NCBI GenBank assembly: GCA_973895155.1
Contig: OZ316894.1
Span: 7,898,234 to 7,962,233 of the forward strand
Direction: 5' to 3'
Origin: Marsupella aquatica
Lineage: Eukaryota; Plantae; Marchantiophyta
DNA: 64,000 nt
Numbering within the stretch: position 1 is the stretch's first letter; each line of letters begins with the position of its first letter. The notes under the pieces are model-generated. The model was not told the DNA's origin. It made no database searches and saw nothing but the letters and a program-made list of their open reading frames with translations. Positions 29,625 through 64,000 of the stretch are shown here, piece after piece. A program made the translations under genes and the position numbers.

Positions 29625-30362
29625 CCACTTCTATTGAGAGTGTCGCAAAAATTGCCATTGTTTTGCAATGACTAGATTTCTGCCATTTTACAAAGTCAAC
29701 TATCATTCGGCATGTCTCTGTACTGAACACTTCTAGGGGACTCAACAAGGAACCCTTACTCGGATGGTTTTTTGTCGATTCTGCTAGTTCAGAGCCTTGA
29801 AAGGGTGTAGCATAGTAAAAAACTCCTCTTATGCTCTTCAGGAAGGAATTCAATTGTTGCAAAACAACAGAGCTGGTTGACAGCTTTAAAAATTCCTCAG
29901 TTTAGTTAACATGTCCCGCTTATCCTGCATTGCTTTTACTAGGCTCATGATAATAAGCCCACCAACACCATGTCCAACCAAAAAGATCGGGCTACTTGTT
30001 TCATAAGGAGGTTTCTTATAAATTGCAAGAATGTCTTGCCTCAAATTCTCTCCGAGTAAATGCAAGTCCATGTGGCCGCCACACGGGGTCTTCCATCTGC
30101 TAGCATCATAACGAGCAGACAAAATTCTGGACTCCGGATACTTTGACTTAAGCCAATCTCGTGGCCAACATTCAAGAGGAACAGTTGTTGACATCCATGA
30201 TTGCACATGTGGGTTGTCAAGCTGTTTCCAAAGAATGTCATGGAAAAAAATAATTTCTGCCTTTGGATCTTTCGGATCAGTGAGCGGGGTGTGAAACGCA
30301 TATATTGAATCATTGTACTGCACACGAGGAATAATATCTGAGCAACAATCAATAAGATGCAA
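29625..30362 (-). pseudogene. 5' part of a SERAC1-like alpha/beta-hydrolase gene (bryophyte hydrolase-NLR-type N-terminal domain), frameshifted and interrupted by the transposon
   Basis: AEIIFFHD, CWPRDWL, SRILSARYDAS, LLGENL, IFLVGHGVGG (nucleophile Ser replaced by Gly), GVFYYATPFQGS. Frameshift near 29900. Homologous to 50488-51141. Confidence 0.85.
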
Positions 30363-31104
30363 TACAAGGAAAAACTCAACAGACTGATGTGCCAGAAATC
30401 TTGAATCTGGACAAAGACATCAAGTATGCGAAAAAGAGACTCCTCATCATGACTAAAGAGAAAAGCTATTCCCTAACGTATTCCTGTATTGCTAAGGCAT
30501 TGATAAAGCTTGTGAGCATAACACAAGCTCTTAGAAAGGCTTTTATGAGATACCTTAAGCAGATCCGGGGTAAAACTTCCGGTAGTGGATGCAGATGCCA
30601 TCGGCACAAGAAGGAACGGGGAAGAAGACAATTATAGTCTCTTGCCTGGAAGAACGGCAATTGACCGACCTACAAAAATAATTCCAATCTTCGAAGACTT
30701 GTCAGTAATTGGCATTATGATAATTAATCTAAACAAGGTGGCAACTCTAGATATTTGAAGAAAAGCAACCCTTCAATAAACACCCAGACAACCATACCGC
30801 AGCGTCAACGGCCGTCGCCACCATTACCGTCGAAATCGATCACCTGCCCCCGCTGCTAGTTTTCCAAAACAAGCGCAGCCTGAACGGCCGTCGCCTGAAC
30901 GGCCGTCCCGCTACTCTTTCCTCCTTTCGCAATTTGCGACCGTGATTTTTCGTCCCTTCATTATTTCAATCATCGGAATGAAACGAGACTTCTCTTTCTA
31001 AAGGCAGAGCGGAAAAAACAACAACGAGATCACCGTGTTTGATCGGCACACAATTGCGTCGACCAATTTTGTTTCTGATTCGAGCGATGTATGGCATATG
31101 TTGC

Positions 31105-34100: not shown

Positions 34101-36548
34101 GGTCAAGGGCCAGGCAGCTTCCAGCCTGGGCTCGTAGTGGGGACTATGAAATGCATATCCCGGAGGATGTAGACTTATGCATTATCGAAACCGCTAACCC
34201 TGTTAGTGACACTATTGCCTTCCGTGATGCTATACAAGACCCTGGCTGGTGCAGTGCTATGCAGGAAGAATATGACAGCTTGATTAAAAATGAGACATGG
34301 GACCTTGTGGAGTTACCCCCGGGGAGATGTGCAATTTCATCAAAATGGCTGTACAAATCTAAACCTATCCATGACGCCGATAATCCAACGCGCGCACGTC
34401 TTAAAGCTCGTCTTGTTGCTAGGGGTCTTGAACAGCAACCTGGCATAGATTATAATGACACTTTTGCACCCGTCGTTCGCTGGTCAACTCTTCGTGCTGT
34501 TATCGCTCTTGCTGTTGCATCTGGTTGGCCTATCAGTCATATGGACGTTGTTACTGCATTCCTTAACGGGACTCTTAAAGAGCTCCTTTTCATGCAACAA
34601 CCGCCTGGCTTTGCTCGTAAAGGATTGGAGCACCTTGTTTGCCGGCTCAACAAATCCATCTATGGACTGAAGCAATCCCCCCGTGAATGGTATCAAGAGA
34701 TTGATAAGTACCTTCACGAACAAGGTTGGACCCGGAGCGATGCTGACCCCAACCTATATTACTTATTTCAGGGGTCCTCTATTGTACTCTTACTCCTTTA
34801 CGTGGACGACCTTCTTATTACCGGCAATGATTTGGCACTCATCGACACTATCAAGCTCAATCTTCAGAATCGGTATGAAATGAAGGATCTTGGTGAAATC
34901 CGCAAATATCTCGGTGTGGAGTTCACCAAGACTGCAAACGGTATGCTTCTTCACCAGCACACCTATGCCGAACAGATTCTTCGTGATTACAATATGACTG
35001 AATGCAGGCCTGCCCACACGCCTCTACCAGAAGGATTCGCCACTCAATCTAACTCTAACACGGCTCCCGTTGACCGCTCAGAGTATTGCACCCTTGTGGG
35101 TAAACTACTCTTCCTTACGACCACTCGACCGGATCTATCCTACTCAGTTGGTATGGTGGCTCGTTTTATGTCTCAACCTCACTTGCAGCACTTGGAAGCT
35201 GCCAAGCACATCCTTCGGTACGTTAAGAAGACACTCGATTATGGGATCCACTACAAACGCTCCTCTCAGCTTCTTCTCACAGGATATACTGATGCGGACT
35301 ACCTTGGATGCCTCGATACTCGGCGCTCTACTGCTGGCTATGTCTTCACCCTGGCTTCTGGGCCTATCTCCTGGGCTAGCAAACGACAACCCACAATTTC
35401 GGACAGCACCACCGAAGCTGAGTACAAGGCCCTCTCTGAGGCTACTAAGGAAGCTGTGTACCTACGTCGATTACTTCGCGAGCTCCAACATACCTCCAAC
35501 GTCACCGTTCCTGTTCAATGCGACAATGCCACCATCCACAAGGACCTACACGAAGCTGCAATCCCTACTTCTCACGATCTACACTTACACTGCGATAACC
35601 AAGGATCTATTCGACTTGCTCTGAATCCGATCTTCCATGCTCGCACCAAACACATTGAGGCCAAACACCACTTTGTACGTGAAAGGATTCTTGAAGGCGA
35701 AGTCTCTTTACAATACATCAACACCGATGACCAACATGCTGACATTTTCACCAAACAAGTCTGTTGGCAAATTTTTGAAAAGCATCGAGATTTCCTTGGC
35801 ATTCGGTCTAGGTCCTCTCTTCTCATCTAGGTTCATCATATGTGTACACTGCACTCCCGCACTATACCTATAGTGGTACTCTCGCTGACCTGCATCATCT
35901 CTCTCTCTCCCATTTGTTTTCTGCGACTTCAGATCGAGAGGGGGTGTTGGAAACTACGATCTTCAGTACCTTGTTTTCCCCTTCCGTATACGGGCCCACT
36001 TTCTGTTCATTGTCGTCTTCTATCCCTTGCTGCTTACCTTTAGATCTAGGTTGCATCCATCTGATGCTTTCGCCCCTTCTCTTGGGCTCTTCTACTATGC
36101 GGCGCCTCTTTGTCGCCCCCTGCACTCCTTGCCCTTTCCCCGAGTACTTATGTGCTTCCCGTTGGCTGTTCCGGTATCTTAGTCATGCTAGATAGTTCCC
36201 CGAGTACTTATGTGCTTCCCATTGGCTGTTCCGGTATCTTAGTCATGCTAGATAAAACTATCTAGCATGACTAAGATACCGGAACAGCCAACGGGTTTTA
36301 TCTAGCATGACTAAGATACCGGAACAGCCAACGGGAAGCACATAAGTACTTGGGGAAAGGGCAAGGAGTGCAGGGGGCGACAAAGAGGCGCCGCATAGTA
36401 GAAGAGCCCAAGAGAAGGGGCGAAAGCATCAGATGGATGCAACCTAGATCTAAAGGTAAGCAGCAAGGGACAGAAGACGACAACGAACAGAAAGTGGGCC
36501 CGTATACGGAAGGGGAAAACAAGGTACTGAAGATCGTAGTTTCCAACA
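31105..36548 (+). mobile_element. Young Ty1/Copia LTR retrotransposon with a rearranged 3' end
   Basis: 5' LTR 31105-31366 (TGTTGG...TCAACA). PBS TGGTATCAGAGC (tRNA-iMet) at 31367. PPT GAGAGGGGG before the 3' LTR at 35945-36197. Inverted LTR ~36296-36548. TSD GTTGC at 31100-31104 and 36549-36553. Confidence 0.95.
31497..35830 (+). CDS. Copia gag-pol polyprotein with one frameshift near 32965
   Basis: Zinc knuckle CNYCSKSGHWEVEC, protease WYMDSGASNH, LWHRRLAH, integrase HSDLCGP/LRSDRGGEY/QNGVAERKNR, RT LLLYVDDLLI, RNase H ADYLG/EAEY/HCDNQ/ADIF. Confidence 0.93.
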
Positions 36549-36696
36549 GTTGCTGCATTTGATTTTGATTTGTCACTCAAATTTTTTCATTGATACCTTC
36601 CGTTAGAGGCATGAGTTATTGCGTTCAATGTCGTTTTGTAATGTGCTCCGAATTTTAATGTCGACTGTTGTAATGAGCAGATATTCAGTTGCACTG

Positions 36697-37922
36697 GAGT
36701 AAGATCGGTGCAACATTTGGCGGCGATAATTTAGCTCCGGAACATTGCCCACAATTTCACCTCAGGACATGCTGCAAGATAGCGAGAGATGTCTGCGACT
36801 CCAGCAACTTTTGCCAGGGATTCCTGACGAGTTTATGTTGGACAAAATTGCTACAAAATTGTCCTGGAAAGATCTTCGCGTCCTCTCCTCAGTTAGTAGT
36901 GGCTGGTGTCACGCAATTCGAACTCGTGAGGTGTACGATGCGAGAGCCCGGTCGAAAACAAGAGAGACTCTCAGTCTAATTTCGTATGGCTGCGGTAGTA
37001 ATTGCTCTGAAATCGTTCTCTATTGCATTAGAGACATGTCTTGTTGTCTTCTTCCTTGAATCCCGCCTGATTGGACGGGAGGGATCACTATGCACAGAGA
37101 ATGTGTTTCATTGGATGGGAAGGTCTATGTCCTGGCAGGACTCAAAAGTAGTGGTGACGATATTCACAGTCTTAACGTGTACGTGTTGGACCTGGCGGAG
37201 CAGAGTGAAACAGTGTGCGAGTATGAGCGTACGAAGATCTCGCATTAGATGTGGTGTCATTAATAGCAAGATTTTTGTATTTGGGAACACCGCAGACTGC
37301 CACCATTCTCATCGAGGAGAGGTGTATGATCCCAAGGACAAATGATACTTGGTCTCTGATTAGGCCGATAGCGTTCGGCCACTTCAACCATGAAGTTGAT
37401 GCGATCGAAGCTCTAGGACAGGACCTTTTTATTTATGGCTACATTTTCCCGGACGAGCATGACAACACTGGGCTGGACGACTTCCCAGCATTTCTGGTTT
37501 ATTATCCAGTCGCGGATGATTGGGGAGAACACAGCCATCGTGGCCGGGAAGATGAATGCCCATTTGTGGCACAAGGAAGTTTGCATACGATGAGCTCTAA
37601 TGACGTTTATATATACGATGTTGAAGGAAATGCATGGAGGCAGCTGCATACAATTTCGTTTGCTGCAAATTCTCGGCCCATTTTTGTGACGGAGGATGGT
37701 ATCGATGACAACTACATGGTGCCAATTTCTGTTAAAGCTGTGGAAGGCGAGAATTTCGTTTTAAGTCATTGGTCTCGCACATTGGACGATGTCTTTCTTC
37801 TTCATAGCAAGGGCTTCAGTGGTGACATAATGGAGATTCAGCTGGAGAAAGTTCCAGTTAACCTGTTTGCCGGGGCCGATGTTCATTCCAGTCTCTGTTC
37901 AATTTCTCTTCTTCAAATTTGA
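36697..37922 (+). pseudogene. F-box/kelch-repeat protein pseudogene (paralog of 46836-48071)
   Basis: LLPGIPDEFMLDKIATKL F-box. The ATG of the paralog is lost (CTGGAGTAA), with a stop at 37057 and frameshifts near 37200 and 37340. The C-terminus SLCSISLLQI matches the paralog. Copia insertion upstream. Confidence 0.88.
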
Positions 37923-39399
37923 GAGGACTCGAATCGTGTTTGACCTTGGTGGACTAGTCAACCTTGTTTTAGAGCTTTTGGGAAAGTGTTGGTTGAATGT
38001 GGATACGTGTGTACTATAGAGCAGAGGCACGAGCAGCCAATTTCACCCGCAATTTCCATGTCGCCTACCTCCGACCGGGCGACGGTCATTGATACCGGGA
38101 TCGATGCCAGGAGCTCCCGTGTATCGTATTTCCATTTCAACCTTAAGGCTCAAACAGTCCCCAAGCAGCTAGTCCCTCACGGTGGTTGTACATATTTCCG
38201 GGAGTAAACCTGTTTAGTTGCAGAAATTTGTTTCGAAGCAAAAATTGAATGTCTCGAGAATAGTCAGCTGGTTAATTGCTGGTTTACAAGAATAGTTGGA
38301 GTCCCGTACGTGACGGTACTGGAGCTCGTTAGAGTTAGTAGGAAAACTTTCTTTCTGAGATAGGTGAACTAGATGTTGCAGTTTAAACTGTTACCAACAT
38401 ACAAGTCCAGGTTAAGAGCACAGCAGAACCTCGCCTGTACCTTTGTGCTACAACCATCTCCCTAACCTTTCAGGGTAGGACTTCAAATTAAGGAGCGGTA
38501 TATTAGGGAGCATGCTAGCCAATCTTGAATAATAAACGTGACCAGATTTGAAAAGCGCCATTGTGGCTGCTACCTTGCCTTTGATTTACCAATTTAGAGC
38601 ATCGAAACAAGGATTTGGTTTAAAGTCTCGTCCCGTCCAGCTTTCATGCGTTGTGGGTAACTTTTGACCTCGCTCACAAAATCCAGAACTGGAAGTCTGT
38701 TTTCCAACTGTAAGAACTGTTTGACCCTTTACATGTGTTCAATGCCGATAATTGTATCACATGTGCTGAGCAAGTTCCGAAGACATCGTGATCGACCATT
38801 GCAAGCACTTCATCACTGAGAACGTAATCCACAAACTTCACCAATTATAGGAGGTTGTTCCTCATCAGGCTTAGGAAGACAACTATGCCTTCCGTTTCGA
38901 GTTAGTTGAGCTAGAGACTATTCACCAATTTGAACCGCGAGGCTGGCTGGAGAGAAACACGCTCGGAAGTCCTGAAATCAAACTCAGGGAATGGGAGGTT
39001 TTGTACAGCAAAAAGGGTGTTCTCATTCAATCATTCATTTACTTGCGGCTGCAGCCGAACGAGATGAAAAGACCCAACTGTGTTCTGATTGTTTTCGTGT
39101 GAGACCAATTCAATGAAGGTCCGGACATAATTGTACCAAAAGTGACCAGCTTAGTAACGTGCAGGGACTGGCATCTGTGCCCTATAGCAAGGCAGTCTCC
39201 CGAAAGAAATGAATTGGACCATTGTGAAGTTGTTGTTCTTGAGTAGGAGCGAATATAGTAAACAGCAATTATAGCTTGTAGGCAATGGTACAACGTGAAG
39301 AGTTGGAGGAGCGGAGCGATGTGATGAAAGGCTGAGATTGTGGGTGGGACAGAAGACGAAACTACTGCTTGTGTACTTTTGGCAGGAATGCGATTTCCT

Positions 39400-46835: not shown

Positions 46836-48071
46836 ATGGAGGAATATCTGCGCAAGTTCCGGCGGCGCCACTGCTGGCGGCCATCCGCAACATTGTCCAC
46901 AATTTCACCTCACGACATGCTGCGAGATAGCGAGAGATGTCTGCCTTTCGAGAGACTTCTTCCACGGATTCCTGATGAGATTACGTTGGACAAGGTTGCT
47001 ACAAAATTGTCCTGGAAAGATATTCGTGTCCTCTCATCAGTTACTCGTGGCTGGTGTCACGCAATTCGAAGTCATCAGGTGTACAATGCGAGAGTCCGCT
47101 TAGGAACAAGAGACAAGTTCGCTCTGATTTCGTATGGCTACTATAGTTATTTCTCTGACATTGTCCTCTATTGCATTAGAGACATGTCTTGTTATCTTCC
47201 TCCTCCAATCCCGTCTGAAGGGAGGGGAGGAATCCCAAAGCACAGTGAATGTGTTGCATTGGACGGGAAAGTCTATGTCCTGGGAGGACTCGAAAGTCGT
47301 GATGCCAATGTCCACAGTCTTAACGTATTCGTGTTGGACCTCGCCGGGCATAGGCAGTGGCAACGGTGTGCGAGTATGAGCGTACGGAGATCTTGCATGA
47401 AATGTGGTGTCATCAATGGCAAGATTTTTGTATTTGGGAATGACGAAGACGGCGACGGTCCTTATCAAGGAGAGGTGTATGATCCCAAGGAAAATACTTG
47501 GTCTACCATGAGGGCGGTGATGTTCAAAGGCTTCCATCATGTTGATGCGATCGAAGCGCTGGGACAGGAGCTTGTTATTTGTGGGTCCACTTTGTCGCAC
47601 GAACATAGCCACACTGAGATGAAGAAGTTCCCAAAATTTCTGGTTTATTATCCAGTTGCGGATTATTGGGGAGAACAGAGCTATATTGGGAGAGAAGATG
47701 AATGCCCATTTGTGGCACAAGGAAGCTTGCATTCGATGAGCTATAACAATGATATTTGTATTTACGATGTTGACAGAACTTCATGGAGGCAGCTGCATAC
47801 ATTTTCGTTTGCTGCGAATTCTCGGCCCAGTTTTGTGACGGAGGATGGTATCGATGACAACTACATGATACCAATTTGTGTTAAAGCTGTGGAAGGCGAG
47901 CTATTCGTTTTATGTCATTGGTATCGCAGTTTTGACGATGTCTTTCTTCTTCATAGCAAGGGCTTCACTGGTGACATAATGGAGATTGAGTTGGAGAAAG
48001 TGCCAGTTGACCTGTTTGCGAGGAACAATGTTAATCCGGATCTTTGTTCAATGTCTCTTCTTCAAATTTGA
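46836..48071 (+). CDS. F-box/kelch-repeat protein, 411 aa, intronless, intact
   Basis: F-box LLPRIPDEITLDKVATKLSWKDIRVLSSVTRGWCHAIRS; kelch blades CVALDGKVYVLGG...WQRCASM and CGVINGKIFVFG...GEVYDPKENTWS. Confidence 0.9.
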   Translation: MEEYLRKFRRRHCWRPSATLSTISPHDMLRDSERCLPFERLLPRIPDEITLDKVATKLSWKDIRVLSSVTRGWCHAIRSHQVYNARVRLGTRDKFALISYGYYSYFSDIVLYCIRDMSCYLPPPIPSEGRGGIPKHSECVALDGKVYVLGGLESRDANVHSLNVFVLDLAGHRQWQRCASMSVRRSCMKCGVINGKIFVFGNDEDGDGPYQGEVYDPKENTWSTMRAVMFKGFHHVDAIEALGQELVICGSTLSHEHSHTEMKKFPKFLVYYPVADYWGEQSYIGREDECPFVAQGSLHSMSYNNDICIYDVDRTSWRQLHTFSFAANSRPSFVTEDGIDDNYMIPICVKAVEGELFVLCHWYRSFDDVFLLHSKGFTGDIMEIELEKVPVDLFARNNVNPDLCSMSLLQI

Positions 48072-49872
48072 GCGGACTCCTGGGGTTTAGTCGTGTTTGA
48101 TCCGCGCATCTTGTTGAATGTCACGACAATAGTCAGGTGGTGAACTGGTGGTTTACAAGAATAGTTGGAGTCCCGTACATGACGGTAGTGGTCAGGAGTT
48201 CTTTAGAGTTAGTAGGAAATTTTCTTTTTGAGATAGGTGACAGAGATAGATGTCTCTGTTCAAACTGTTACCAACATCCACGTCCAGGTTAAGAGCACGG
48301 CAGAAACTCCCCTGGAATTCTGTGCTACGACCATTTCCCTAACCTTTGGGGATAGGACTTGAAAGGAGCGGTATTGGACTATGCTACCAATTGTGAATTT
48401 AATAAACGTGCCCATGTCTGAAAACGTACTTTGGCTGCTACGTTGCCTTTGATTACCAAGTGAACTTAAAGCATCAATACAAGGATTTTGTTCAACCTCT
48501 CGTCCCGTCCAGCTTTCATAATGCGTCATGGGTAACTTTTGACCTCGCTCACAAAATCTAGGACTGGAACTCTTGTCTGATTTCCAACCGTGACAACTGT
48601 TTGACCCTCTAAAGCTTCCAATGCCGATAATTGTATGACATGTGCTGAGCAAGATTCGATAACATCGTGATCGACCATTGCAATCGACTATTGCAAGCTT
48701 TTCAGCACAATGTTATCCAGAGACTTCAGCAATTGGAGGAGATTGTTTTTCACCAGGCTCAGGAAGAAAACTATCTGTCACGTTTCGAGTCAGTTTAGCC
48801 TGAGACTATTATTTTTAACCAATCTGAACCGCGATGCTGGATGGAGAGAAACACTATCGGAAGTGCTGAAATCAAACTGAAATGTTTCGTAGATTCGACG
48901 AATAATACCAACCACGATATATAGAATAGTAACGGTCAGTCTAGGGACAGATCAATCTTACTCCCGTTCATCTGCATCCATTGCAAATGTCGGAAACTAG
49001 CTCGGCGTTCAGGTTGATTTGGAGTGGATTGAGCTTCCATGCCAGTAGCGCGAGAGCTTCTCTAATGGCCAAATCTCTTAGGCAATCGTCAACAAAGGTT
49101 TGTCCAGATGCTTTCTTTCTCAAGTGAGTACCCATGTTGTCGTCGTTCGTGAGGAAAGCACGTCTTTGGTATACATATCTTGCTGAGAATAGGTTTCAGG
49201 CCTCGAGGAAAAATCCCTAATGAGCTCCTGTGGTTGCAAGATCGAGGCCGACTTTTATTTAATGTTATTATAGATTAAGGCCGACTTTGTTTTGTAGACT
49301 ATCAAATAGGCGATCGAGCACTGGCATAGTAGAGTTTTCGCAAGGATGACGATGCATCTGACACTCTCCTCATACTGGAAGCTCTTCAAGTTACCGTACC
49401 GCGAGTTCCCTATAGCTTCATGTCGGTGATCGTCAGCAAAGCCTCAAACGGACAGCTCCTTCACCCCGGGGCCCACGCTGATCATCATGTTGGCAGAGGG
49501 TTTGATGTTGACCGACAGCCTGTTGCAAGTCGATGACTTGCATGAAGTGTAGTTCCGAAGCGGCGTTCTGGTTGCGCTTTTCGGATAATTTTGGAGCCCA
49601 GTAGATCTTGCTCTCAAAATCCGATTTTCATAGTATCATGGTGCTCCAAGGCTGTTCTCACGGCGGCTTATGTCACTTGCAGGAGATTTCCTACGATTCA
49701 ACTGAGCAAGCAAAGCTGAAACTTGATAGTTGATTGAGAGAGTGCTGCAGTCATCAACCTCTGGAGATCACACACTTTATCCACCTTACGAATTTCCAAT
49801 TAGTACTTGCGAAACAAAATGTGGAGTTGGTTCAGAAAGAGGGACTTGTGAATTTTCCTACAGAAGGAAAGT

Positions 49873-52800
49873 ATGAAGCCGAAGCCACAAGCCGGTATAA
49901 ACCAGGTTAGTGTTTGTTGACTTAATTGACTCGGTGTCCGACCACGTTCTGCTTCGTATTGTGCGGGTTCACTTGGGACCCTGGTTAGGATTCTTTGTTG
50001 AGATGTCCGGCGCGCTCTTAGGATTTGCTTAAATTGAAAGCATAGGTGGCTCATCGACTATTGATACTGTTCGTGATATAGGATCATGACTCTTTTAGCT
50101 TTCGTGTCATATTCATGCTCGTTTTTCATATGAACCATGAATTATATTAGTTTGTTTTAATTTTTCAAAACCCCATTTATAGAACCTTCCAGATTGCAAC
50201 ATGTCCACTTGAATGCTAATAGGAATGAATGCCCATTCTTTCAATACTAATAGGAATGATAACAAAAATCATCATACGTGATTCATGTTGACATACATAT
50301 ATCCCGTCGTACTTTCCATGTGCAAATTTTGGTGGGGCTCTTACTAGAGTCCCTGTCTAAAGGCTTCACTCTACAGTAGAAGCCTAGACCCCAACTGTAG
50401 CTTCTGTTGGCCACTTATTAGTAAGATTTGTGCATTGTCAAGATTCAATCGAAACTACTAAATATGATCGCCCGTCTGAATTTACAGGTCAACGATTCTG
50501 TTTGGGAACTGTATTGTCCTGACGATAGGATCTATGATATGGAGATTGTCTTTTTCCACGGGCTTCAAATGGGTGCCTTTGAAGACGCTTTCTGGAACAC
50601 TTGGCTGGCCAAAGACGATGAACAGCTGGTGTGGCCCCAAAAATGGCTCAGCAGAAGATTTCCTAGAGCTCGAATCTTATCAATCTCTTATAATTCTAGT
50701 ACAACGCCAGCAGAGATCCAACCTGATATGTATCTACTGGGGGAAAATCTTGTGACGGATATCATCAAGGACTCAAATTGCAGTGTCGGGACACGCGAAG
50801 GCTGTCCAGTGTTCTTGGTAGGTCACAGTTTAGGAGGAATAGTGATTAAGCAATTTATGATATCTGTTATGAGGGGGAGAGAGAGGATCACCGATAAGGA
50901 CATCGTCGGGAAGTTCAAACTATTTTTTGACAACTGGAAGGGAGTTTTCTACTATGCTACTCATGAGGGATCTAAGATAGCAGACCTAATAAAACTAATA
51001 CTAGACACGAATCCAGTCTTAAGTATTCTGACGACTCTTGACAACCAGAGCAGTAGGATCAACGAAGAGTTTAGACGATATCGTCGCTTACTCTATGCAG
51101 AGGCGCACGCGATTGGGGAGTCTCAACCGACATCGTACAGAGTGAGACACCCTTGTCAGACCCAAGTTTCCATTTTAAATGTCCGTCTAAATGATTTCAG
51201 GGTCAATTACAGAATCCCGGAGGTACTTTTACATATTCGATGTATGCATTTTGGTTCAGGCAGTCTGAGGGTGCGAGTCTCAATGTTCTGGGCGACCGAA
51301 CAATATTGACTTTTCTTTGCAAAATGCTTTGTGGCAGGGGTTTAACGAAATAGTTGTGCAAGAGGCATCAGCTCGACATGACGTTTTGGAGTTCTACACT
51401 TTCCAAACAGCAAATCACTTTACAGTTTGTAAAGCAAGGCGCGCGGACGATTCTATTGTCATTGGAAAGCTTGCTCAGTTTATAACCCTGGCCATACCAG
51501 GGTACTTACTCCAATCTAGAAAAGACGAACTTGTACTTGACCCTGAGAACATCCACGGTACTCCTGTACTTCCGCACATGAGGCCGACTCGGTTCGAAAG
51601 GCGGGCGAGTTTTCCACAACCTTCCAATCTACAAGCTTCCAGGATTTTGAGCGACGAACTTGCTGGACAGGTAATCCGGACTCCCGAGTCTTAATTTGGC
51701 CGCATTGAAATCTATGTCATTCATTTGACTAGATAAGTACTGTAAGTAGGTGGCTCGAGACTCGACCCTTCATTTGGCCGAATACATATCTGGTGTCATT
51801 CATTCGATATAAGTAGGAAGCTAGAGACCCAGAGAAGTAAGGTCAAATATATTGTGTCCACAGTCATACTCTGTTTTAATGGCTCTGGAGATCAAACTTG
51901 ACCATCGTCAGGATTAAAAAACTCATAATATTATACAATTTAAAACTATATATTTGTTGGTTCGAGATGATTTGGAAGAAAATACATGCGGACCATTAGG
52001 AATAAAATAAATGAGGACCCCTGACATGCTAAACATTTGCCCTTCTTATGTTTAAGCATTCCCAAGATTTCAAAGTCTCCACTCAACAAGAAGACCCCAC
52101 CGCTGTATTATGTGTGCGCCACGGCTAACTGCTGAGGGCGATGATAGGAAGGATTCACCACACACAAGTACGACGCTTCATCGACTCAACAAGAAGCAAG
52201 ACTTGGAAGTCTCCATTCCCGTAACAATTCATGGAGCGAAGGGCCTGGAGGACTTTTCAGACGTAGAGGAGTTAGTGGACTTTCCAGACTTGGGTCGACT
52301 CAATGTGTTTTAGACAGAGGTGGCCTCGATGAGCCAGCGTCGCCTGCTGAGAGCGACGATAGCAAGGACAGCAAGGATACTACTCCACGCACAAGTACGA
52401 CGCTTCATCGACGCAACAAGAAGCAAGACTTGGAAGTCTCCGTCCTCGTAACACTTGATGGAGCCAACGGCCTGGACGACTTTTCAGACTTTGGTCGCCT
52501 TAACACTGCGAAACGCCTATTGATAACCAGGTTTCCTGGCTCCTCGCTCCTGGGAGATACCCGGCAACTTGTTGCGTTACAGCAGTTGCAAATTCAAGAT
52601 TGTTCGCATGTCAAAGAGCTTCCTGAGTCCCTCGGGCAGCTCATAAATCTGAAACGCCTTGTCATATTGAATTGTCCTAGTTTATCAGGGGTTCCAGAGA
52701 CTCTTGGTAGTCTCACAGCGCTATGGCACCTGCGAATTCAAGATTGTGAGGGATTGAAGGACCTTCCAGGAACGTTGGGGCATCTCTGTGGTCTGGAGGA

Positions 52801-53704
52801 ACTCATTATATGGAATTGTTCTCGTTTAACAGAGATTCCTGATACTATCGGGCAACTTGGGGCGCTGCGGCACCTGCTCGTTCATGGTTGCAAGGGTTTG
52901 GAGGGTCTTCCACAATCCTTGGGCCAACTAGAAAGTCTAGAACACCTGGTTCTATCAAATTGTTCGGGTTTGACAGAGATCCCGTTCAATATCGGGCAGC
53001 TCGTGGCTTTGCGACACCTGCAAATCCAAGACTGCGAACGTTTGAAAATTCTTCCGGAAACCTTAGAGAAAGTTCAAGCTCTCGAATATGCGACGATATC
53101 TAACTGTTCGAATGTATCTAGGTTCCTGAAAGGTTTTAGTGTAGAACTTCTAGAAGAGAGAGCTCCTGCCAAGCGTGATCGTCTACAATGGCCCAGTCTT
53201 GATGAAGTCAAAACCGATTTCAACGTAAAAGGAAAATCTGAAGTTTTGGAGGACGAGGTCTATTTAAACAGTGACGCTGGTCCATTTGTGCCTAGTGCTG
53301 TGAGCTCATCAGAAATGATCTCTACGGAAGAATTTATAGGGGAAGTTGAAAAGGGAGGTGAAGATGGTTACTTTGTCAGTTCCGAGTGGCTTCTCAGTCT
53401 CGACGAGTGTGAAAGGGATTCTTTAATGCTAGTGCTATGGATGGCCGGGTATTCAGAGATTTATGAAACAGCCTCCACAACGTTCTTTGCAAGGTTTGCA
53501 GATTATGTGGAGTGTTCGATCACCTACAACAATCCATCGAGCAAGATCACGAAGACTGACTCTGTCGTTGCTGGTGATATCGATGATCAAGTTGGGATTG
53601 CAGGGGAATCTTATCAGTGGAAGTCGTTCCTAGTAACACTGAAGAGCAAACGTCATCAAAGCTTTTCAGTAAGCACTCAGTGGCTTTCGAATTTGAAAGA
53701 CTGA
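49873..53704 (+). CDS. Alpha/beta-hydrolase plus LRR protein (hydrolase-NLR-like, no NB-ARC seen); possibly decayed
   Basis: Putative exons 49873-49905, 50488-51141, 51338-51670, then ~52314-53704 (splicing between 51671 and 52430 unresolved). Hydrolase motifs IVFFHGLQ, WPQKWL, FLVGHSLGG, NHFTVCK. About 8 NLR-type 24-aa LRRs (LxxLxIxxCxxLxxLPxxLGxL). Short internal duplication 52127-52300 / 52345-52505. Confidence 0.75.
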
Positions 53705-55518
53705 AAGGAAAGCATTTGTAGGAATCTGTCAGGACGCTGGGTACGAGAAGATTTCCGAGACACACACGGCAACTTGGTATGAGAGAACCCTAGGACATAT
53801 ACAGAATCCATCAGGTGGTCAAGGTAGTGAGGATTCACCAGGGTCGACGTCAACCATAAATGAAGGGACAGGCGGCCATCTCAAAAGGCCGGGAAATTTT
53901 GAAAGTGATGGCTTGGCAGGAAGGCTGATGCGAAAGTGGAATGTGAATCTTAGTAATGATGCAGGAGGTTCCTTGCCGGTGGCAGACATGACGGGAGCAA
54001 CTTTGTCCGAGAGGATTGGAGTCCACGAAGTGGGAAATCCCGCAGGTGTACGTGGCGCTGATTCCTCTGAAAGATCGTTCGACAAGAGTGATGATGTTTC
54101 TGTTAATGTCACTAAACCAGGTATAGTTGAAAGCGGTGGCTTACTTGGGTGCCTGATGCCAAGGAGGAATGTCGTTAATGATAATCCAAGTGGTTCCTTT
54201 GGTGAGGGAAACTTGGAGAACCCTCTAGTTGATGCACGTGAGGACGATTCATCAAGCTCATCCAATAGAGATTATGCTAGTGGTGATGTCAGCCGGGATG
54301 GCAACAACCGAGCAGGAACATCTGGTGGTGGTGGCTTGATAAGCCGGTTGGGGAACTTTCTCGAGCAGATATATATCAGTGCTTCCAATGGCCGTGTCAC
54401 AAACGAGATGAGAAACGAGACAGAAACAAGTGAGTTTTAAATGAGTATTGATTTGCAATGTACGTGGTTCAGCTGCCAAGTAACGTTGGAATTTATTTTC
54501 CATAGACTTGCTTGGGGTCGAAGTCTCAGGTGGTGATACAATGACGTCCAGTGCCTTGCCGTTGAAAATTCGAACTTTGCGGTTTTGCAGGGCGGAGGCA
54601 AGACGCACGTCGGGAATGCACTCCGCAGCTTTTGAGAGTGACTTGCTCTTCTGATTCTGATCCGCCTTCTCCTTCAAGTGATCTCCGACCAAGCAAACAC
54701 TACATAAGAAAACAATTTGGTGACGCCCAGAATGAAACGGGTGAAACAATGTCTCCAGAGGGTTCTGAACAATTTTCAAGCCTACGGGTTGTGACAATGC
54801 CTCGAACGGGGGCATCCGAACGAATCTCTACCGCACTTGATCGATGTTTCTCATTACCAACAGTATTGTATCCTCGCAACGAGGGAGCCAAGTTGGTTTC
54901 CGTCAGTCTCAAAGCCACAGCAGAAACCTCACTGGCCACTTACAAGGGAGTGTTAAATTTTCTCAAATGTCTGGTGTAGTCAAGACCCAAGATCGAGATA
55001 AAAATCCATGCATAGCATTGAGATCTTTATGGACAAATGTGTACGGTTGTTGCGCTAGAAACACAAACAGCGAAACTCGGGAGCACATACTTTTGGCTCT
55101 TAAGGCTGAAGACTATCGCAATCCAGTACGTCGGACAGAAGCCGAAAATGCTCAACGATCTCCAGATGGCCTTGTTCAGTTGTCAAGCTCGCTCCAGAAG
55201 CTGAACTCTTGTGAGCCAGGCTCAATATCTCTAGAGTTGCTGAGTGATGTTTGTAGACGACTGAAAAATGACTCACCGAACGGAGTAGCGAGAGCCAATG
55301 GTCTTGATTTCCAAGATCCGGTGATATTGGAGGGGCGATTAAATTTCCACCCAGAATCGTTAGAGCTTGACATTAGGAATTGGCTTGAAATTGTATACTA
55401 TAAACCTCGACCGCCCATCCCCAATGCTAGGTTTTGTGGTGGTTGGCGCACTTGTATAGAGATTGACTTCAACTGTGCTTTGGAAATTAAAACGGATCAA
55501 TTTTCGGTTGGTTGACCA

Positions 55519-58500
55519 TGTCTCACTGTGAATGACTCATACTGATTCCCGACATTCAGACTAGTGACAGTAAGATCTTAATATTAGGACTAGCTTTACG
55601 TGTCAGATAGAATATTAGCCTTTACGTGTCAGATAGAATATTAGCCTCAGACTCAGACTAGTCAGATTTAAATTCAATCAGCATCAAACAGCGATGATCT
55701 AGTTTAAGGATTTGAATTAAATCTACCTGCCAGCACCTAACGTCTTGACTGTGACAAGCGGGACGCGGCCAGCCCTTTGTGTACTGGCAGTCACGCCACC
55801 TGTTTGTGCTGATCACTTGGGCTGCTACTGCGCCTTTTGTTTTTTCTCAGATGGAGCGCCTCTACTTGAGGGTCTCCTCTCATTCTATTCACTACATTGT
55901 GCATTTGTATTTTTCCTATGTTTGAGCGCGTATGCTTTAGTCACAGGTTATGGGCCGAAAATGTTTTACTCATCACGCTCTACCATGTAGTGTTGTCACG
56001 TACATTTGCTGTGTTCTCACGTACATTTGCTTTACTTGCATCGATACATTGACTCGTATTCTCGCTTCGTTGTTGACATATTTTTCCAACTTCTCGATGA
56101 GTACCTCCGTAGGCTACAACAGCCATCTCATACCTAAGCTAGAAGGTAATCTCAATTTTCCCGCATGGAAGCTACTGTGTACTTCCACACTCAAGGCCTC
56201 CAGTGCCTGGAAGTTTGTCGATGGGACTGCGACTGAACCGACTAGAGATCCTACTGAAAAGGACTATCAATTTGCTGAGCGTTCAGAAGTTTTTCACTCC
56301 CGAGCTGCACAAGCTTGCAATATTATTCTTTCATCCTGCAGACCTCACATTCAGCAAACACTTGCTACATTTCCTTAGCCAAGGATTTCTGGGAAAAGCT
56401 AATTGCTACGTATGAGGCTGACGGATTGATTCATTTGCAGGATATTTGGGCTAATTTTGTCCACTGCAAATATGAAGGCGAAGAGATTGAAGAGTTTTGT
56501 GCCACATTTCGTGCTGCTGTTGATAAATGCACTGCTGTCGGGATTGTCACTCAAGAAAAGATTCAAGTTCTTCACTTCGTCACCATTCTTGACACTCACT
56601 TTGAGCACTGGACGGCAAATAAACATGACCAGATGAGACGTGATCCTAAGAATCTTCCCACTCTCAGTGCTCTCATTAACGAAGTGGTTGATGAATCTCG
56701 TAAGAGACGTGAATGTGCTGCGCTTCAAGTCCTCACCAATCGAGTTCCTGCTGTGACTCCTCCTAGGAACAAGCGTCTCAAGCCGGGCAGACCAGATGTC
56801 TGCACCACTTGTCAACTTCCTAGTCATGGTGCAGACCGCTGCTTCTACGCGCACGTCAATTTACATCCTGACCATTGGCAGCCGAATCCTGCAGTCTTGC
56901 AGAGAATACAAGATCGAAGCAGTACTCCTGCTCGACATCTCAATCATGTACAGGCGCAAGTAGCCTCGACATCCACCGAGGAGATTGACTGTGACATTTT
57001 TTCAAGCTATTATGCTCAATTTGGTCATGATGCGACCAATCATATGTAGAACAAGTCCTCTGCCAATCTATGGATTGCTGACTCGGGTGCTAGTCATCAT
57101 TTCTGCAACAATCGAAGTCTCTTTGCTGACTACATTGATGATCCCCTACCAATCAATACTGGGAATGGCTCGGTTACTTCCCCTGGGAAAGGGTCTATTC
57201 ATCTTCTAATCCAACGCTCTGGTGGTGACTACAAACCTTTGTTGTTGGCTAATGTTCGATACACACCAACGAGCTTCCTCAACACCATCTCTGAAGATGT
57301 TCTGGAACAACACAACATCAGTTGGCGCAGTGAATTGCAGCAGTTCATTCATCTTCCGACTGGCACTGAGTTTGCTGTGGTCACTAAGCAAAATGGATTG
57401 AAACTACTCAATGTCCGCATACCGGCCCTAGCCGAGCATTATGCAGTGGTGGTACCATCAGCTATTCTTGATCTCAACATTCTCCACAGACGACTTGCAC
57501 ATCTTCATGTTGATGGCATTCGACAACTACTCAAACAAGAAGGGCTCTCGCTATCATCTTCGTCTCTTTTTACGCCATGTGAAGCATGCTCTCTTGCCAA
57601 GTCCAGTAAAATCATTTGTCGCATTCCTCAATCACGAGCTCTTAGTCCATTTCAGATTATTCATCTTGATACATGTGGACCACTCTCTACGTCTGCCATA
57701 GGAAACAAGCATTACTTCCTTATCTTTACTGATGATTTCTCCCGCTATCGCTGGGTTGTCTGCCTTTCAACTAAAAGTCAAGCATTCACTGCCATCCAAC
57801 ATTTCTTTTTCTCCGTTGTCAATCAGTATCACTCCACCATCTCTGAACTCCACATTGACAATGGTACTGAATTTGGAGGTCGACAACTTACTGACTTCTT
57901 GGCATCCCAAGGATGCAAACATGTACCTTCGGCTCCCTATCATCATGAGCAGAATGGAATTGCTGAACGATCTATTGGTGTCATCACTCAGAAAGCTCGT
58001 GCAATGATTATTGATGCTCACCTTCCAAAACATCTTTGGCCTGAGGCAATTACAACTGCTGTCTACATTGCCAATAGATCACCGACTGTTGTTAATCCAG
58101 CGAGCTCCACACCTCAAGCACGTCTCCACCAGGCAATAGGACGACCACAGCAGACCAACATTACTCGTCTCCGGTCCTATGGTGCAACTGCCTATGTCCA
58201 CATTCCACCTGAGAAACGTGCTCGTGGAGATAAATTTACGGCACGTGCTAGGAAGGGCTTCCTTGTTGGATATGCTGATGGTCTCAACTACAAAATCTGG
58301 TTTCCAACTACTAATGAGATTGTTCGCTCTGCATATGTACAGTTTGATGAGACTCCACGAACCTCTGCCATCAATAGCAGCGACACGTTGTCTCACACTG
58401 CTACGTCTAGCACCGATGATGTAGTGGCTATCTTCTCAGCACCAGTCCCACAGCTATCGACTATCCCCTCTGATTGTTCCGTGGATGCTGAGCAAACATC

Positions 58501-60805
58501 CACCACAATTTGTACTGGCAGTCAGCATGATGACACCACGGTGACCACCTCCACTGATGATTTGACGTCATCAATTGATGCAGTCGCTTGCCCTGCTAAT
58601 GCGCCAGTGATCCAGGCTCCCCCCTTGGGATATCACACCGAAGGAGAAATTCAAGCTGACATTGCAACTGTCATAATTCCCACTCCACTCCGAAGATCAT
58701 CACGTCTCAACAAAGGAGTTCCACCTTCTCGATTAGATGATGGCATCAATCAGGTCCTCACTTCTCTACCACCAACGCTTCTCTACAACTACTCGGCGGC
58801 TCTCTTCTCACTCACGTTGACAGATCCACCACGTCATCACAAAGAAGCCATGCAGCGACCTGACTCTTCCAAATGGAAGGAAGCGGAGATGCTGGAGCTC
58901 CACCAACTTCGCAAGCTCAATGTTGCCCGACTTGTACCACTTCCAATTGGTGCTCGATTACTACCTTCAAAATGGGTGTATAATATCAAACGTGATGGGA
59001 TCTACAAAGCACGACTGAGCACGAAATTCAGAGAAGCACGACTCAGAGAAATTCGTGCTTCTCTGAATTTCGTTTGTCGTGCTTTGCTGACGATAGATCC
59101 ATGAGACTATTCAGAAAAGCTGTAACTATGTCAACTGAGTGAGCTTTTCTGAATAGTCTCATGGATCTATCGTCAGCAATCTACATCCGCCCTCCTCCTG
59201 GATATGAGACTTACGATGCACTTGGCCGACTCCTTGTCTGGCTACTTTTGCGAGCCTGGTATGATCTGAAACAAGCCAATCATCTTTGGTATCATACTAT
59301 CACGAAATATCTCATTCAACATGGCTTCCTCCCACTGCCATCGGATCCATGTGTACTCCAGAATGATGAGGGTGAACTTCTCATCCTTTGGGTGGATGAT
59401 ATTATTATTGTCTCTAAAGATCTTTGTGGAATCCAGCGCATCAAAGCTATAATCTCCAGTGAATATGAAGTCCGTGATCTAGGTGACCTTGAGGAGTACC
59501 TAGGAATGTCAATCACCAGGAATTGTTTGGAGCGGACTCTCTACATCACTCAGCATCGCTACATTCTAAAGATTCTACAGAAGTTTCACTTGCAGGATTC
59601 TCGCCTAGCTCCGTCACCTACTGCTGATAGAGATCAACTTCTTCCAAACTCGGACGTCGCCACACATGATCAACGCCAGCTCTACCAGGCCATGCTTGGG
59701 TCCATAATGTATGCAGCAGTCTGGACCAGACCAGATCTATCAGAACGTTGTAGTCGGCTTGGCCAGTTTGCACATAATCCATCTCCGGAACATGAGAGTT
59801 GTCTACGTCGAGTGTACATCTATCTTTGTGGCACCAAGCATCTGGGCATCAGATTTCAACCATGAAACTATGATGGACTTGAAATTCATTCTCTTGGTCT
59901 TGTTGGCTATTCTGACTCATCTTATGCTGACACTCTCGACTGCAAATCTACTAGTGGATATCTTTTCAAGTTTGTGAATGGTCCCATTTCATGGAAATCA
60001 CGCAAGCAACCCATTACTGCCACTTCGTCTACTGAGAGTGAATATATTGCTTACTCTATTGCCACGAAGGAGGCCATCTGGCTTTGCCGACTACTTCATG
60101 AGCTTCATTACAATGCTCCAGATTCTCACAGGGTTGTCATCTATGGTGACAACAAGCCTGCCATTTCACTTACGTTCAATCCTGCTCATCACTTCAGGAC
60201 CAAACACATTGATGTTCCGTATCATTTTGTTCGTGAGCAAGTTCAGTCAGGAATTGTTATTATTCAATATCTTTCCACACAGGACATGCCAGCCGATGGT
60301 CTTACTAAGCCTCTTGTTGGGATCAACTTTTGACATTTTGTTGATCTTCTTGGTCTCAAGTTGTTACCTGCCAGCCCAATCCGGGGGTGTCTCACTGTGA
60401 ATGACTCATACTGATTCCCGACATTTAGACTAGTGACAGTAAGATCTTAATATTAGGACTAGCTTTACATGTCAGATAGAATATTAGCCTCAGACTCAGA
60501 CTAGTCAGATTTAAATTCAATCAGCATCAAACAGCGATGATCTAGTTTAAGGATTTGAATTAAATCTACCTGCCAGCGCCTAACGTCTTGACTGTGACAA
60601 GCGGGACGCGGCCAGCCCTTTGTGTACTGGCAGCCGTGCCACCTGTTTGTGCTAGCCACCTGTTTGTGCTGATCGCTTGGGCTGCTACTGCGCCTTTTGT
60701 TTTTTCTCAGATGGAGCGCCTCTACTTGAGGGTCTCCTCTCATTCTATTCACTGCATTGTGCATTTGTATTTTTCCTATGTTTGAGCGCGTATGCTTTAG
60801 TCACA
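55519..60805 (+). mobile_element. Older Ty1/Copia LTR retrotransposon with degenerate gag-pol (~56098-60380)
   Basis: LTRs 55519-55945 and 60388-60805 (TGTCTC...GTCACA). PBS GGTTATGGGCC at 55946. G-rich tract before 60388. WIADSGASHH, ILHRRLAH, HLDTCGP, DNGTEF, QNGIAER, LILWVDDII, RTKHID. Several frameshifts and stops. CCATG on both sides. Confidence 0.93.
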
Positions 60806-62079
60806 CCATGGACTCTGTGGAAGTGCAGTATGCTGACAGTGGCCCTCCCGGCAACGGAATCAATTATTCCTCTATTGGATTTCTGCCAACCAGTGCAATA
60901 TGGTTTGACTTCACTCTTCGTTCTTATATGGGTTTTGCGCTCTTATATCCTTCTCTAATTTCTGCGAAAAGGAGGACTGTATCTTTTGCTAACTTTGGGA
61001 GTTTGCATTTGCCGTCTGCTTTTGCGTGTGTCCTCTGTGGACCTTTGCTTTCACTCCTTCACTCTTTTGTTTGGCCCTTATAAAAAAATTGGTCCCTTTT
61101 TTCTTTTTTCTTTCCCTTTTTCCCTCTTTGTTTTCTTTTTCTTTCAGGGTTGCACTTGCTTCTTTTGTGTTTGTCCTCTTTGGATTTCTTTTGTTTGCTC
61201 TTCATTGTACTTTGTTTGGCCCTTTCTCCCGGGGTTTCTATGTAATAATTTTTTCTTGTTTTTTCACTTAAACCACCACTAGCCCACGAACAAAACCCTG
61301 GATCCATCAAATTTCATATAAACAGTACATTTTTTTCCTGAAATTGTGGAACAAAATGCCTAGGAGAGAAGCTGAATGTGAGAAAGGGAGAAATCTTGAC
61401 ACTTCCTCCTTTTATATAGCTAGTGGGGGTTTAAGGAAGTCAAAGGAATCATGTTAGAGTAGTTTTCTGTGCCATCCATGCTACTTTCCCCACCCCGGAG
61501 ATTCGGGTGTGGTACAGGTGCAACTTGTATGGCAAATCCCAAGACTCCCAAGTTGCTCTTCAAGCTTTTGGTGTGAAATTACTGTTTTATACAAGAGTAG
61601 AAGAGTGTAGGGTAAATAGACATTAAGATATTCAAATCATACTAAGTTATGGCAACGAATACAAACAGTACCGCTGTAGTGGGACGGAAATGGTTACAGG
61701 GCACCTTAAGACGAGGTCTGGACGTGTCAGACATATACAAAGACACATGTTGGGAAAATAACAAGAAGCCTTAAAGGATGGGTCTAAGGCCTTAATTCCT
61801 TTTTCCAAAAAATTATGATTTTTAGAAATGTAGTCCTAAAACAAGCAATAAAATCAGCATATTTGTTTGACATTCACCCTTTGCATTTTAAACTAGACTT
61901 TATGTCAATGTTTGAGACAAAACATATTCAAAACTTGATTTTCATAGAATTGACCTGTCAAAAACAATCATTTATATCATAGTTAGGCTCCAAGGCCATT
62001 GACATCTCAAAACTTGCAAGTAAAGTCTACTTCTATGCAACTACAACAACCCTAAAATGTCTTACAGAAATATCCTCAG

Positions 62080-64000
62080 CTAATCATCTCTTGTGTCCTC
62101 AACACTTTCAACAACTCCTAAAGAGTCAAGTCCTATGATTTCCTCCTCTCCAACTCCTATCTCTGATATTGGTAGAATGGTCTCTTGAACATCAACATCT
62201 AAATCCACCATGCCTTTGCCATCATCTTCCTCAATGTTGTCCACCAGGTTTAGAATTCTCCCTTTCAAGACACTGCTCTGGCGCTCATCAATTTCTACAG
62301 CAACACAATGTCTTCCTTGTGCCAAAGAGGAAGACAATCATGTGCCTGACCCTGAACAAATATCTAGCACCCAGTCTCCAACCTGGCTAAAGTGGGTAAC
62401 TTCCCAATCCAATAACACTCTTGGCTTCTGGTAAAAGTTCACCATCTTATTGTCCCCGTTGTATTTCAACTTATTGGTCACAGCTGGACACACAACCACA
62501 TTATTTCGAGACTCATTAGTCTCAAAATTGAAATGCTCCAAAGACCGTTTCCCATCCTGACTATGAAAGCCAATGGTGAAACACTCAAAATTGTTGTTAA
62601 GCCTTGCACCTCCTACATTCTTAACATTGTCTTTCACCCTACAAAAACCAAAACTTGCATTATGGATTTGTTTCAAAATCAACCATCATGAAATGATGAA
62701 CACCAAAAAAACATATTCACCTTTTGAAATGTTTCTTACCAAATACAATTCTGGAAACCACCATTACACTCAGCTTTCAAGACAGTCTTGACAGCATCAT
62801 ACTGACCGTCAATACTATGATGAATGATAATTCGCCAAAGATTTGCCTTGGTGACAACCTTGAAGGACTGAACCATCTTGGTCACCTCTTCCACACCCCA
62901 TCCAACATTGTCTTTGTGAAGACAAGCAGTCATTCCAAACCCATAAGGAATATCTGCCAAAGCCAATGTGTAAGCTCATGATGGGATTACCTCGTGCAAC
63001 TGCTGAGCATCGTGTGTAAATATATCATAGTACACATCCCCAAACTGTGGATGCTCAAAAGCATTAGGATGAAGTTCACTTCCCTAGGTCTCTTGGCAAG
63101 ATTTCTTAATTGCCAACCAATTCTGTGCTTGTGCAATATGTGCATTGAACTTATCTGGGAAGGACTTCAACTTTTTGCTTTCTTCATTCTCTCCCTTCTT
63201 TTTCCGGGAGCTGCTGTCTTTCTGAGAAAAAAAAATTGGGTACATGAGATTCCTACATACTTAAGAATAAAACTGTAAAACAAATGCTCAGTCAATCTCA
63301 AATAAACTTACCCAAGTCTGGAAGACAGGAACAAAATTCTTCAGCACATTATCAGTGCAGTGTTCTGGGTACTTGGTTTTGAAATTCTTCCAACTCTCTT
63401 CGTGAAGACAGGTAAGAAATGCTTTTTGAACTTGCATTTGGAATTTGTGTCGTTGAAATTCCTGTCCCATCTCTTGAAGAGATAATTCCTTTGCCAAAAC
63501 CCTTTGTAGCACTGGACAGATCATGTCCGGATCTTTCAATGCTTGTATGTGTCTCCACTCAGTCAACTTCATATCCTCACATAGCATTTTAGCATCTCCA
63601 GACTTGGATATCTTTTTCTTGGTCTTATCTCCTTTCAGTCCTTTTATCTCACAATTCTCCCATCTGTCAAAGATTTGCCGTATGAAAGACCAAACAAGAT
63701 CCTTACGAAATGCCAATTGAAATAAATTATCATTGGCATTCAGAACCTCAGAATCTTTACGTACACCCCAGTCCTTTAGATTGATTTCAGTGGCACACTC
63801 CTTCTTGAAATCAACATTTGATGATGCTCCATTAGAACTCTACAAATCGCATGTGAATGTAATTCACTCTTTGGATGGTGCTCATTTGTTGACGAAATTC
63901 AGAGTCTATATTATGACTCCAAGCTAAGTTCCTTGCTTCCTGGATAGACAAGCCTGCAAAGATCCAAGATTGCACTCTCCTGTACGACTTGTTGTTGGGA
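62080..64000 (-). pseudogene. ParB-like plus N6A/N4C (beta-class, N6_N4_Mtase-type) DNA methyltransferase gene, 5'-truncated by the window edge; premature stops
   Basis: Spliced read (introns 63311-63222, 62739-62639): WIFAGLSIQEARNLAWSHNID (ParB-N end)...YYDIFTHDAQQLHEVIPS*AYTLALADIPYG...NCIWVKDN...NNFE...NFYQKPRVLLDWEVTHFSQVGDWVLDICSGSGT*LSSSLAQGRHCVAVEID. Stops at 63086, 62978, 62340; frameshift near 63835. Confidence 0.85.

Follow-up and report, generated by a model that had tools for sequence, protein, structure and literature searches.

DNA transposons that carry a ParB-like domain together with a DNA amino-methyltransferase have already been described in algae. In the brown alga Ectocarpus, the element Sola1-1_Ec32 encodes an accessory protein with ParB-like and N4C/N6A DNA methyltransferase domains, makes a 4-bp duplication, and has a transposase whose closest family is Sola1-1_PPa (PMC12477816), which we read as a Physcomitrella family. 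The Plavaka elements of Bostrychia, with the accessory genes PAG2 and PAG3, have inverted-repeat arrays beside a ParB gene (bioRxiv 2025.02.11.637652), and the portions of the algal papers available to us propose that the ParB-methylase cargo binds and modifies its own element, those portions reporting no test of the idea (PMC12477816; bioRxiv 2025.02.11.637652). Phage ParB-terminase loci contain fusions of ParB_N with N6_N4_Mtase, and eukaryotic methylase clades have been linked to these loci, the accessible part of that survey holding no description of the family treated here (PMC4738411). Among eukaryotic beta-class amino-methyltransferases of bacterial type, bdelloid N4CMT silences transposons (PMC8885841) and Marchantia DN4MT1 marks sperm DNA (bioRxiv 2021.02.12.428880).

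The window analysed here is a stretch of 64,000 nucleotides of Marsupella aquatica DNA, and a gene combining the same two domains runs off its right edge. The initial annotation had implied that this design was new, a claim that cannot be kept given that transposon genes with ParB plus N4C/N6A methyltransferase are in print (PMC12477816). What the locus appears to add, judged from its sequence, to the fusion known beforehand from algal transposons is a land-plant family with signs of recent spread; our literature search found no land-plant report of ParB-methylase transposon genes, and supplements or subscription papers may contain one. As in Sola1-1_Ec32, the two domains lie in one spliced gene within a terminal-inverted-repeat element, the termini share their first three letters (AAC in the window, AACCG in Sola1-1_Ec32), and the same proposal of self-binding and self-methylation can be made. 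Sola1-1_Ec32, however, belongs to a brown alga, has a known transposase and a 282-bp inverted repeat, whereas the present element belongs to a land plant and has a probable repeat of about 63 bp; the likeness noted is one of domains and element structure. With PAG2 and PAG3, genes carried by giant DNA transposons in Bostrychia, it shares a PF01555 methylase and a ParB-like domain, but there, as far as the available text goes, the domains sit in separate genes (methylase-SET and ParB-oxygenase) of EnSpm/Plavaka elements, whereas here they are fused and the element end is not of CACTA type. The phage fusions have the domain pair in common with our gene, and among clusters with Pfam domains they come nearest to it in language-model features (score 0.87-0.88, taken as a lead only), but the window family has an extra helical domain and Pfam detects no ParB_N in it. 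DN4MT1 and N4CMT are likewise eukaryotic beta-class enzymes of bacterial type, yet both are described, in the available text, as domesticated host genes of S-type without ParB, with TSPPY in DN4MT1 (bioRxiv 2021.02.12.428880) and SPPY in N4CMT (PMC8885841).

The gene has the following layout in the window:

63312-64000, minus strand: exon that is open at the edge of the window and carries the tail of the ParB-like domain plus a helical linker; frameshift near 63834
63222-63311, minus strand: intron 1, 90 nt, GT-AG, phase 0
62740-63221, minus strand: exon with the start of the methyltransferase domain, motif IV DIPY at 62954-62943, premature stops at 63086 and 62978
62639-62739, minus strand: intron 2, 101 nt, GT-AG, phase 2, splitting the W of IWVK
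62686-62699, no strand: palindrome TCATG-N4-CATGA with one mismatch, in intron 2
62080-62638, minus strand: last exon with QKP, SAM-binding motif I (DICSGSGT), an acidic tail and the final stop near 62080; premature stop at 62340; PF01555

Both GT-AG introns of the initial annotation could be placed (63311-63222 and 62739-62639), and their positions are shared, codon for codon, with three metagenome loci (L001, L002 and L003), the three confirmed among 155 pattern matches. The spliced model is 62% identical to a Calypogeia fissa protein over 406 columns, gap-free over both junctions, the exon at 63312-64000 is 53-65% identical to 15 close relatives, and L002 has an open frame over three exons; the 3' end of the window gave no useful alignment with L003. 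The motifs were found on the minus strand in the order and at the place first proposed, i.e., DIPY, IW|VK, QKPRVLL, VLDICSGSGT and then GRHCVAVEID, so that motif IV precedes the SAM-binding motif I in the permuted beta-class order.

In the last exon PF01555 scored 31.5 bits, above the Pfam cut-off of 26.7 (E=2.2e-7), and the middle exon (62740-63221), scanned alone, had no Pfam match. A structure model of a full-length Chara relative (P0035, mean pLDDT 80.6) matched CcrM with Z 24.1 (rmsd 2.6, 219 aligned), the other beta-class matches being M.BceJIV (Z 23.4), M.MboIIA (22.1), PvuII (20.1) and N4CMT (20.0). Bacterial beta-class N6-adenine methyltransferases were the best sequence matches among solved structures, the profile search placing CcrM at 1e-11, N4CMT at 9e-6 and PvuII at 1.1. 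The gene product resembles CcrM, M.BceJIV, M.MboIIA, M.RsrI and M1.HpyAVI in permuted motif order and, by the P0035 model, in fold (Z 20-24), but differs from these enzymes in its low identity (16-20%), in having DIPY rather than DPPY, in its long N-terminal ParB-like and helical extension, and in its introns. With respect to the consensus [DNSH]PP[YFW] given for the catalytic motif of such methylases (PMC4738411), DIPY retains the D, the second P and the Y, and lacks the first P. Among the 151 proteins of the family examined for motifs, 64 covered motif IV, and 41 of these have D-[ILVFAP]-P-Y, with DIPY the commonest form (18) and DPPY in 3; SPPY occurs in none of the 64. QKP is kept in 85 of 104 relatives, and motif IV, QKP and the glycine-rich motif I are conserved over Chara, liverworts, a fern and Ginkgo. 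Sequence and models together support the reading of the gene product as a beta-class DNA amino-methyltransferase fused to a ParB-like domain, whose fold is taken from models of relatives. The initial annotation had proposed such an enzyme, to be abandoned if a profile search gave no methyltransferase match, and both the PF01555 match above cut-off and the agreement of the P0035 fold with CcrM speak for it; its caution that DIPY cannot settle 6mA against 4mC was fair, though the evidence leans to 6mA.

The ParB-like segment adjoining the window edge on the minus strand (IFAGLSIQEARNLAWSHN) is the tail of a domain whose GGNH motif, in close relatives, lies 16 residues upstream of the window's first residue, i.e., about 50 bases past the window. 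The corresponding domain of L002, 76% identical to the window's piece over the shared part, was folded alone with a pLDDT of 86.1, and Foldseek gave 14 matches to this model at E<=0.001, every listed one a ParB or Noc protein (top E 1e-4). Residues 98-235 of the P0035 model match PadC (Z 9.5, rmsd 2.7, 95 aligned), KorB and sulfiredoxin (Z 7.8), and in both L002 and P0035 the ParB-like and methylase domains are continuous in one gene, the corresponding junction of the window gene lying in the window. The models of relatives therefore support a ParB-like fold of the N-terminal domain, and the segment proposed at the outset stands as regards the fold in a close relative, the window itself holding only the domain's tail. 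Membership in the ParB CTPase clamps (ParB, Noc, KorB) appears doubtful, as neither the GxxR arginine nor a ParB_N profile was found: a Pfam scan of 32 + 14 family proteins detected no ParB family, and in 13 family proteins the residue after GG[NGTQ]H is S, T, C, Y or G, with the arginine of GxxR absent. This arginine motif is the mark of ParB CTPase clamps, and its absence makes CTP-driven clamping doubtful.

A search with the Calypogeia protein gave 410 representatives (E<=0.001), and the listing covers 150 of them. Among 21 proteins looked up by cluster, ten had a species, namely Chara braunii (5), Calypogeia (2), Riccia sorocarpa, Adiantum nelumboides and Ginkgo biloba (1 each). No relative was present in the viral contigs or prokaryote genomes searched, and tblastn of 50,697 phage records gave no match to the family; a lone match of 28 residues in a 686-aa frame resembling an RNase R-type ribonuclease was rejected as a relative. 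Four relatives, P0040, P0062, P0137 and P0144, are encoded by long uninterrupted frames on metagenome contigs of 3-4 kb and could be non-plant or viral members. When compared with L001-L003, the window gene showed pS values of 0.63-0.89, near saturation, at a protein identity of 62-82% (9 of 9 pairs), which indicates long purifying selection on the lineage.

The window copy itself is broken by one frameshift and three in-frame stops. A 4-base insertion near 63834 shifts the frame, the stops are at 63086, 62978 and 62340, with GSGT immediately before the last one, and an additional 3-base insertion near 62805 keeps the frame. Such a copy cannot encode the full protein and writes nothing, and the writer role that the initial annotation had left to it has to be given up. 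In the contigs of public runs, the sense allele was found at 62340 in all covering depth (4 of 4 runs) and at 62978 in 71-100% of it, and the insertion near 63834 was absent from all covering depth in the two runs that cover it (X1 and X3), so that among the matches listed most contig depth carries sense alleles at three of the four lesions (62340, 62978 and 63834). These three lesions look private to the window copy, and intact copies of the element's gene are likely to exist, although no single contig spans the gene.

The element that hosts the gene was mapped with the contigs of five of the six public runs listed for the region:

61756-61759, plus strand: candidate target-site bases AAAT, from the window sequence
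61760-61822, plus strand: probable terminal inverted repeat of about 63 bp, imperfect, starting AAC, from a contig of equal depth
61760-64000, no strand: end part of a repeated element, its terminus placed sharply at about 61760 by a depth step and unlike flanks; it continues past the window

In X1 the depth rose from 13 in the flank to 173 and 187 in two contigs inside the element, which differ from the window at 6 of 510 and 6 of 572 bases, and in X2 from 57 to 1129-1600; overall, sequence inside the element had 13-28 times the flank depth at about 99% identity, the depth not being a true copy number. In 4 of 4 runs the positions 61757-61760 are where contigs with differing flanks begin, and deep contigs begin exactly at 61760 in X2 (depth 622) and X3 (depth 915). 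An 81-nt contig of X1, whose depth (173.5) equals that of the element body (173), follows 61760-61822 with 7 differences before diverging; we infer that it represents the other end of the element's inverted repeat of about 63 bp. The element end lies about 320 bases beyond the gene end. Contigs in X3 and X4 depart from the flank after 61758 and are possibly the empty site, or paralogues instead, as they also differ before 61698. The depth step and the many flanks at 61760 agree with the earlier suggestion that the gene belongs to another large element extending past the window edge, one that was to be dropped if the gene proved single-copy without transposon context. The element is likely a recently amplified cut-and-paste DNA transposon, with no transposase in the portion held by the window, and we regard it as very probable that the window gene is a dead cargo gene of a terminal-inverted-repeat transposon. 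On the minus strand of L001 (2-703) an open frame of 234 codons points away from the ParB-methylase gene and runs off the contig; it had no Pfam or Atlas match and is possibly the start of a transposase gene.

As to the superfamily, an end with a TTAA target and an AGG terminus at 61775 (Kolobok or piggyBac) and a Mutator-like GGGAAA end at 61752 were both dropped, the contigs putting the end at 61760. The terminus AAC, not CAC, sets the element apart from the CACTA element that carries the first cargo, and its ends have no similarity to that element's ends, so that a CACTA/EnSpm assignment was rejected as well. Sola1 elements are reported to make a 4-bp target duplication with a preference for AWWT (PMC3845634), which the window flank AAAT fits and the single-contig flanks TAGT and CAAT of other copies do not. 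One side per insertion was seen, and the last flank base in other copies is T or A. The PHIS transposons (Pangu, Harbinger2) use a 3-bp ANT or AWT target and usually have AG or GG termini, according to the available text (PMC4482050; PMC12477816 supplement); several of our flanks fit A-N-T and others have A as their last base, and the first two letters of the terminus are AA. A Pangu-like A-N-T target of 3 bp is also possible. Assignment to the Sola1 superfamily is tentative, at somewhat less than even odds.

The window contains another ParB-methylase-like cargo gene, called the first cargo, on an element of another kind:

14743-29622, no strand: CACTA-ended element carrying the first cargo, with a 2-bp AT duplication, from its inverted repeat, termini and DUF7869 (E=1.2e-33)
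16590-21670, minus strand: first cargo gene, a distant homologue with DFSR and FSGGQ, from profile comparison

For both cargo proteins, the nearest relatives with a species name come from Calypogeia fissa, a leafy liverwort. Homology of the two, on whose absence the initial annotation would have been withdrawn, is present by profile comparison only: hhalign gave a probability of 99.0 (E=4.8e-18, 15% identity) between profiles and of 95.8 for the first cargo as a single sequence, with the helical and methylase parts aligned, and direct BLAST between the two cargoes gave E=0.022, too weak for use. The ParB exon of the first cargo matched the family profile faintly (probability 0.6 and 8.7, E=0.0038). 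In the alignment DFSR stands opposite DIPY and FSGGQ opposite SGSGT, and DF[S/T/G]R and DFFSGGQV occur in all six members of the first group (the first cargo and five relatives). A tree built from 26 of 40 sequences, the other 14 being dropped as both motifs could not be extracted, splits catalytic-type from pseudo-enzyme-type groups at 100/100; it contains no bacterial, phage, DN4MT1 or N4CMT sequences and says nothing about origin. The split into a catalytic-type and a pseudo-enzyme-type subfamily is thus real in sequence, and we infer that the subfamily of the first cargo would be inactive and that of the window gene active. Of the earlier contrast between writers and pseudo-enzymes, the two subfamilies hold at the level of sequence, and the window gene, a dead copy, does not serve as an example of a writer.

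The first element also holds a fragmented DUF7869-type transposase at about 25.3-29.0 kb on the plus strand and a NIF-family phosphatase frame at 15193-16257. Between 18958 and 22658, 10-11 copies of a 21-bp palindrome, GCCTCGCCC-NNN-GGGCGAGGC, surround the first cargo, some of them in a 65-bp tandem array; it is a candidate binding site for this element's ParB-like protein and is unrelated to TCATG-N4-CATGA. Minus-strand frames on both flanks (14195-14689 and 29886-30419) resemble, by eye, one alpha/beta-hydrolase gene, as if the CACTA element had inserted into it. Elsewhere in the window, an SNW/SKIP splicing-factor frame without introns lies at 6129-8036 (PF02731, E=1.5e-74), and a Copia-type element whose 253-bp LTRs are 99% identical lies at 31104-36549; after it come a short tandem segment and one more LTR copy in inverted orientation (36196-36549). 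A Kelch-repeat gene is present twice, in fragments at 36700-38500 and again 10 kb away at 46836-48364, the copies being 83-87% alike, and the region 50425-55515 has weak alpha/beta-hydrolase matches and then strong LRR matches, which we take to resemble the hydrolase-type immune receptors of liverworts. Another Copia-type LTR retrotransposon (55590-60810), with LTRs 96-99% identical and a broken pol frame, contains a perfect inverted repeat at 59084-59179, its 38-bp arms separated by 20 bp.

The inverted repeats beside the ParB genes of Bostrychia prompted a scan for palindromes around the window gene. The palindrome TCATG-N4-CATGA in its intron 2 is completed by the alternative letter at 62695, which is present in all covering depth of X1, X2 and X3, and the exact palindrome occurs in intron 2 of L001, L002 and L003 (3 of 3), the window's site lying about 13 bases nearer the intron donor than those of the relatives. 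L001 and L002 have further copies upstream of the gene, and matches with at most one mismatch number 6 in L001 (shuffle mean 0.36) and 3 in L002 (shuffle mean 0.17), the pattern having been picked from the same loci in which it was counted; over the whole window, 5 one-mismatch matches against a shuffle mean of 4.2 are at chance level. Upstream of the gene, L002 has two perfect 32-bp palindromes (307-380), each centred on TCATG-CTAG-CATGA, and a GTTGTGTGTATACAC stretch is common to L001 and L002. We consider TCATG-N4-CATGA a candidate binding or methylation site.

The explanation we prefer is that the window holds a decayed ParB-methylase cargo gene of a recently spread transposon whose intact copies mark the element itself, and as a whole we give it a probability of about 0.6. 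In intact copies, the ParB-like and helical part would bind the TCATG-N4-CATGA palindromes of the element, likely as a dimer, and would thereby hold the fused methylase on it. The methylase would then write a methyl mark on an exocyclic amino group, N6-methyladenine being likelier than N4-methylcytosine, plausibly at CATG, and the mark would help the element to remain expressed or mobile against host silencing. We consider it fairly probable that intact copies are active methylases; that they act mainly on their own element via the palindrome is possible, at a little under even chances.

The same architecture might instead serve as a structural accessory factor, in which the ParB-like part binds and pairs the element's ends or represses its promoter, while the methylase domain catalyses little or nothing and acts mainly as a scaffold for DNA binding or dimerisation. 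The persistence of a sister subfamily whose 6 of 6 members have DF[S/T/G]R and DFFSGGQV in place of a catalytic-type motif, with its own palindrome in 10-11 copies around the first cargo, argues in this direction, as do the 23 of 64 relatives that depart from D-[ILVFAP]-P-Y; some of these departures are, however, expected from dead copies, and with motif IV, QKP (85 of 104) and the glycine-rich motif I kept from Chara to Ginkgo, we regard such a structural role as rather unlikely. A reading in which intact copies produce N4-methylcytosine, or act on the host genome at large like Marchantia DN4MT1, is very unlikely in our view. D-type N4C enzymes such as M.BamHI do exist, and PvuII (Z 20.1) and N4CMT (20.0) fit the fold nearly as well as CcrM (24.1), but the profile search puts the N6A enzymes first, SPPY is lacking in all 64 relatives covering motif IV, and the fused DNA-binding part argues for targeting.

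Capture of a host gene fragment by a Pack-type non-autonomous element, or a segmental duplication, would leave the gene without a role for the element. The portion of the element in the window has no transposase, and the introns are present and old, as such an origin would have it; the sharp end, the many flanks and the second end of equal depth, the many diverged copies among the relatives (410 representatives), and the occurrence of the same architecture on transposons both in the first element of the window and in Ectocarpus make it hardly credible.

The self-marking reading, when taken to its furthest extent, would describe active land-plant transposons with an addressing system resembling parS-ParB, 6mA self-marking, and a sister subfamily that lost catalysis and kept the addressing, a picture we consider unlikely in its entirety. 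The family offers a land-plant test case for self-marking by a transposon: its motifs are of catalytic type, its copies agree to about 99%, one end of the element is mapped, and there is a candidate site. The origin of 6mA and 4mC marks in plants is disputed, and the intact copies, if active, would be a transposon-encoded source of one or the other.
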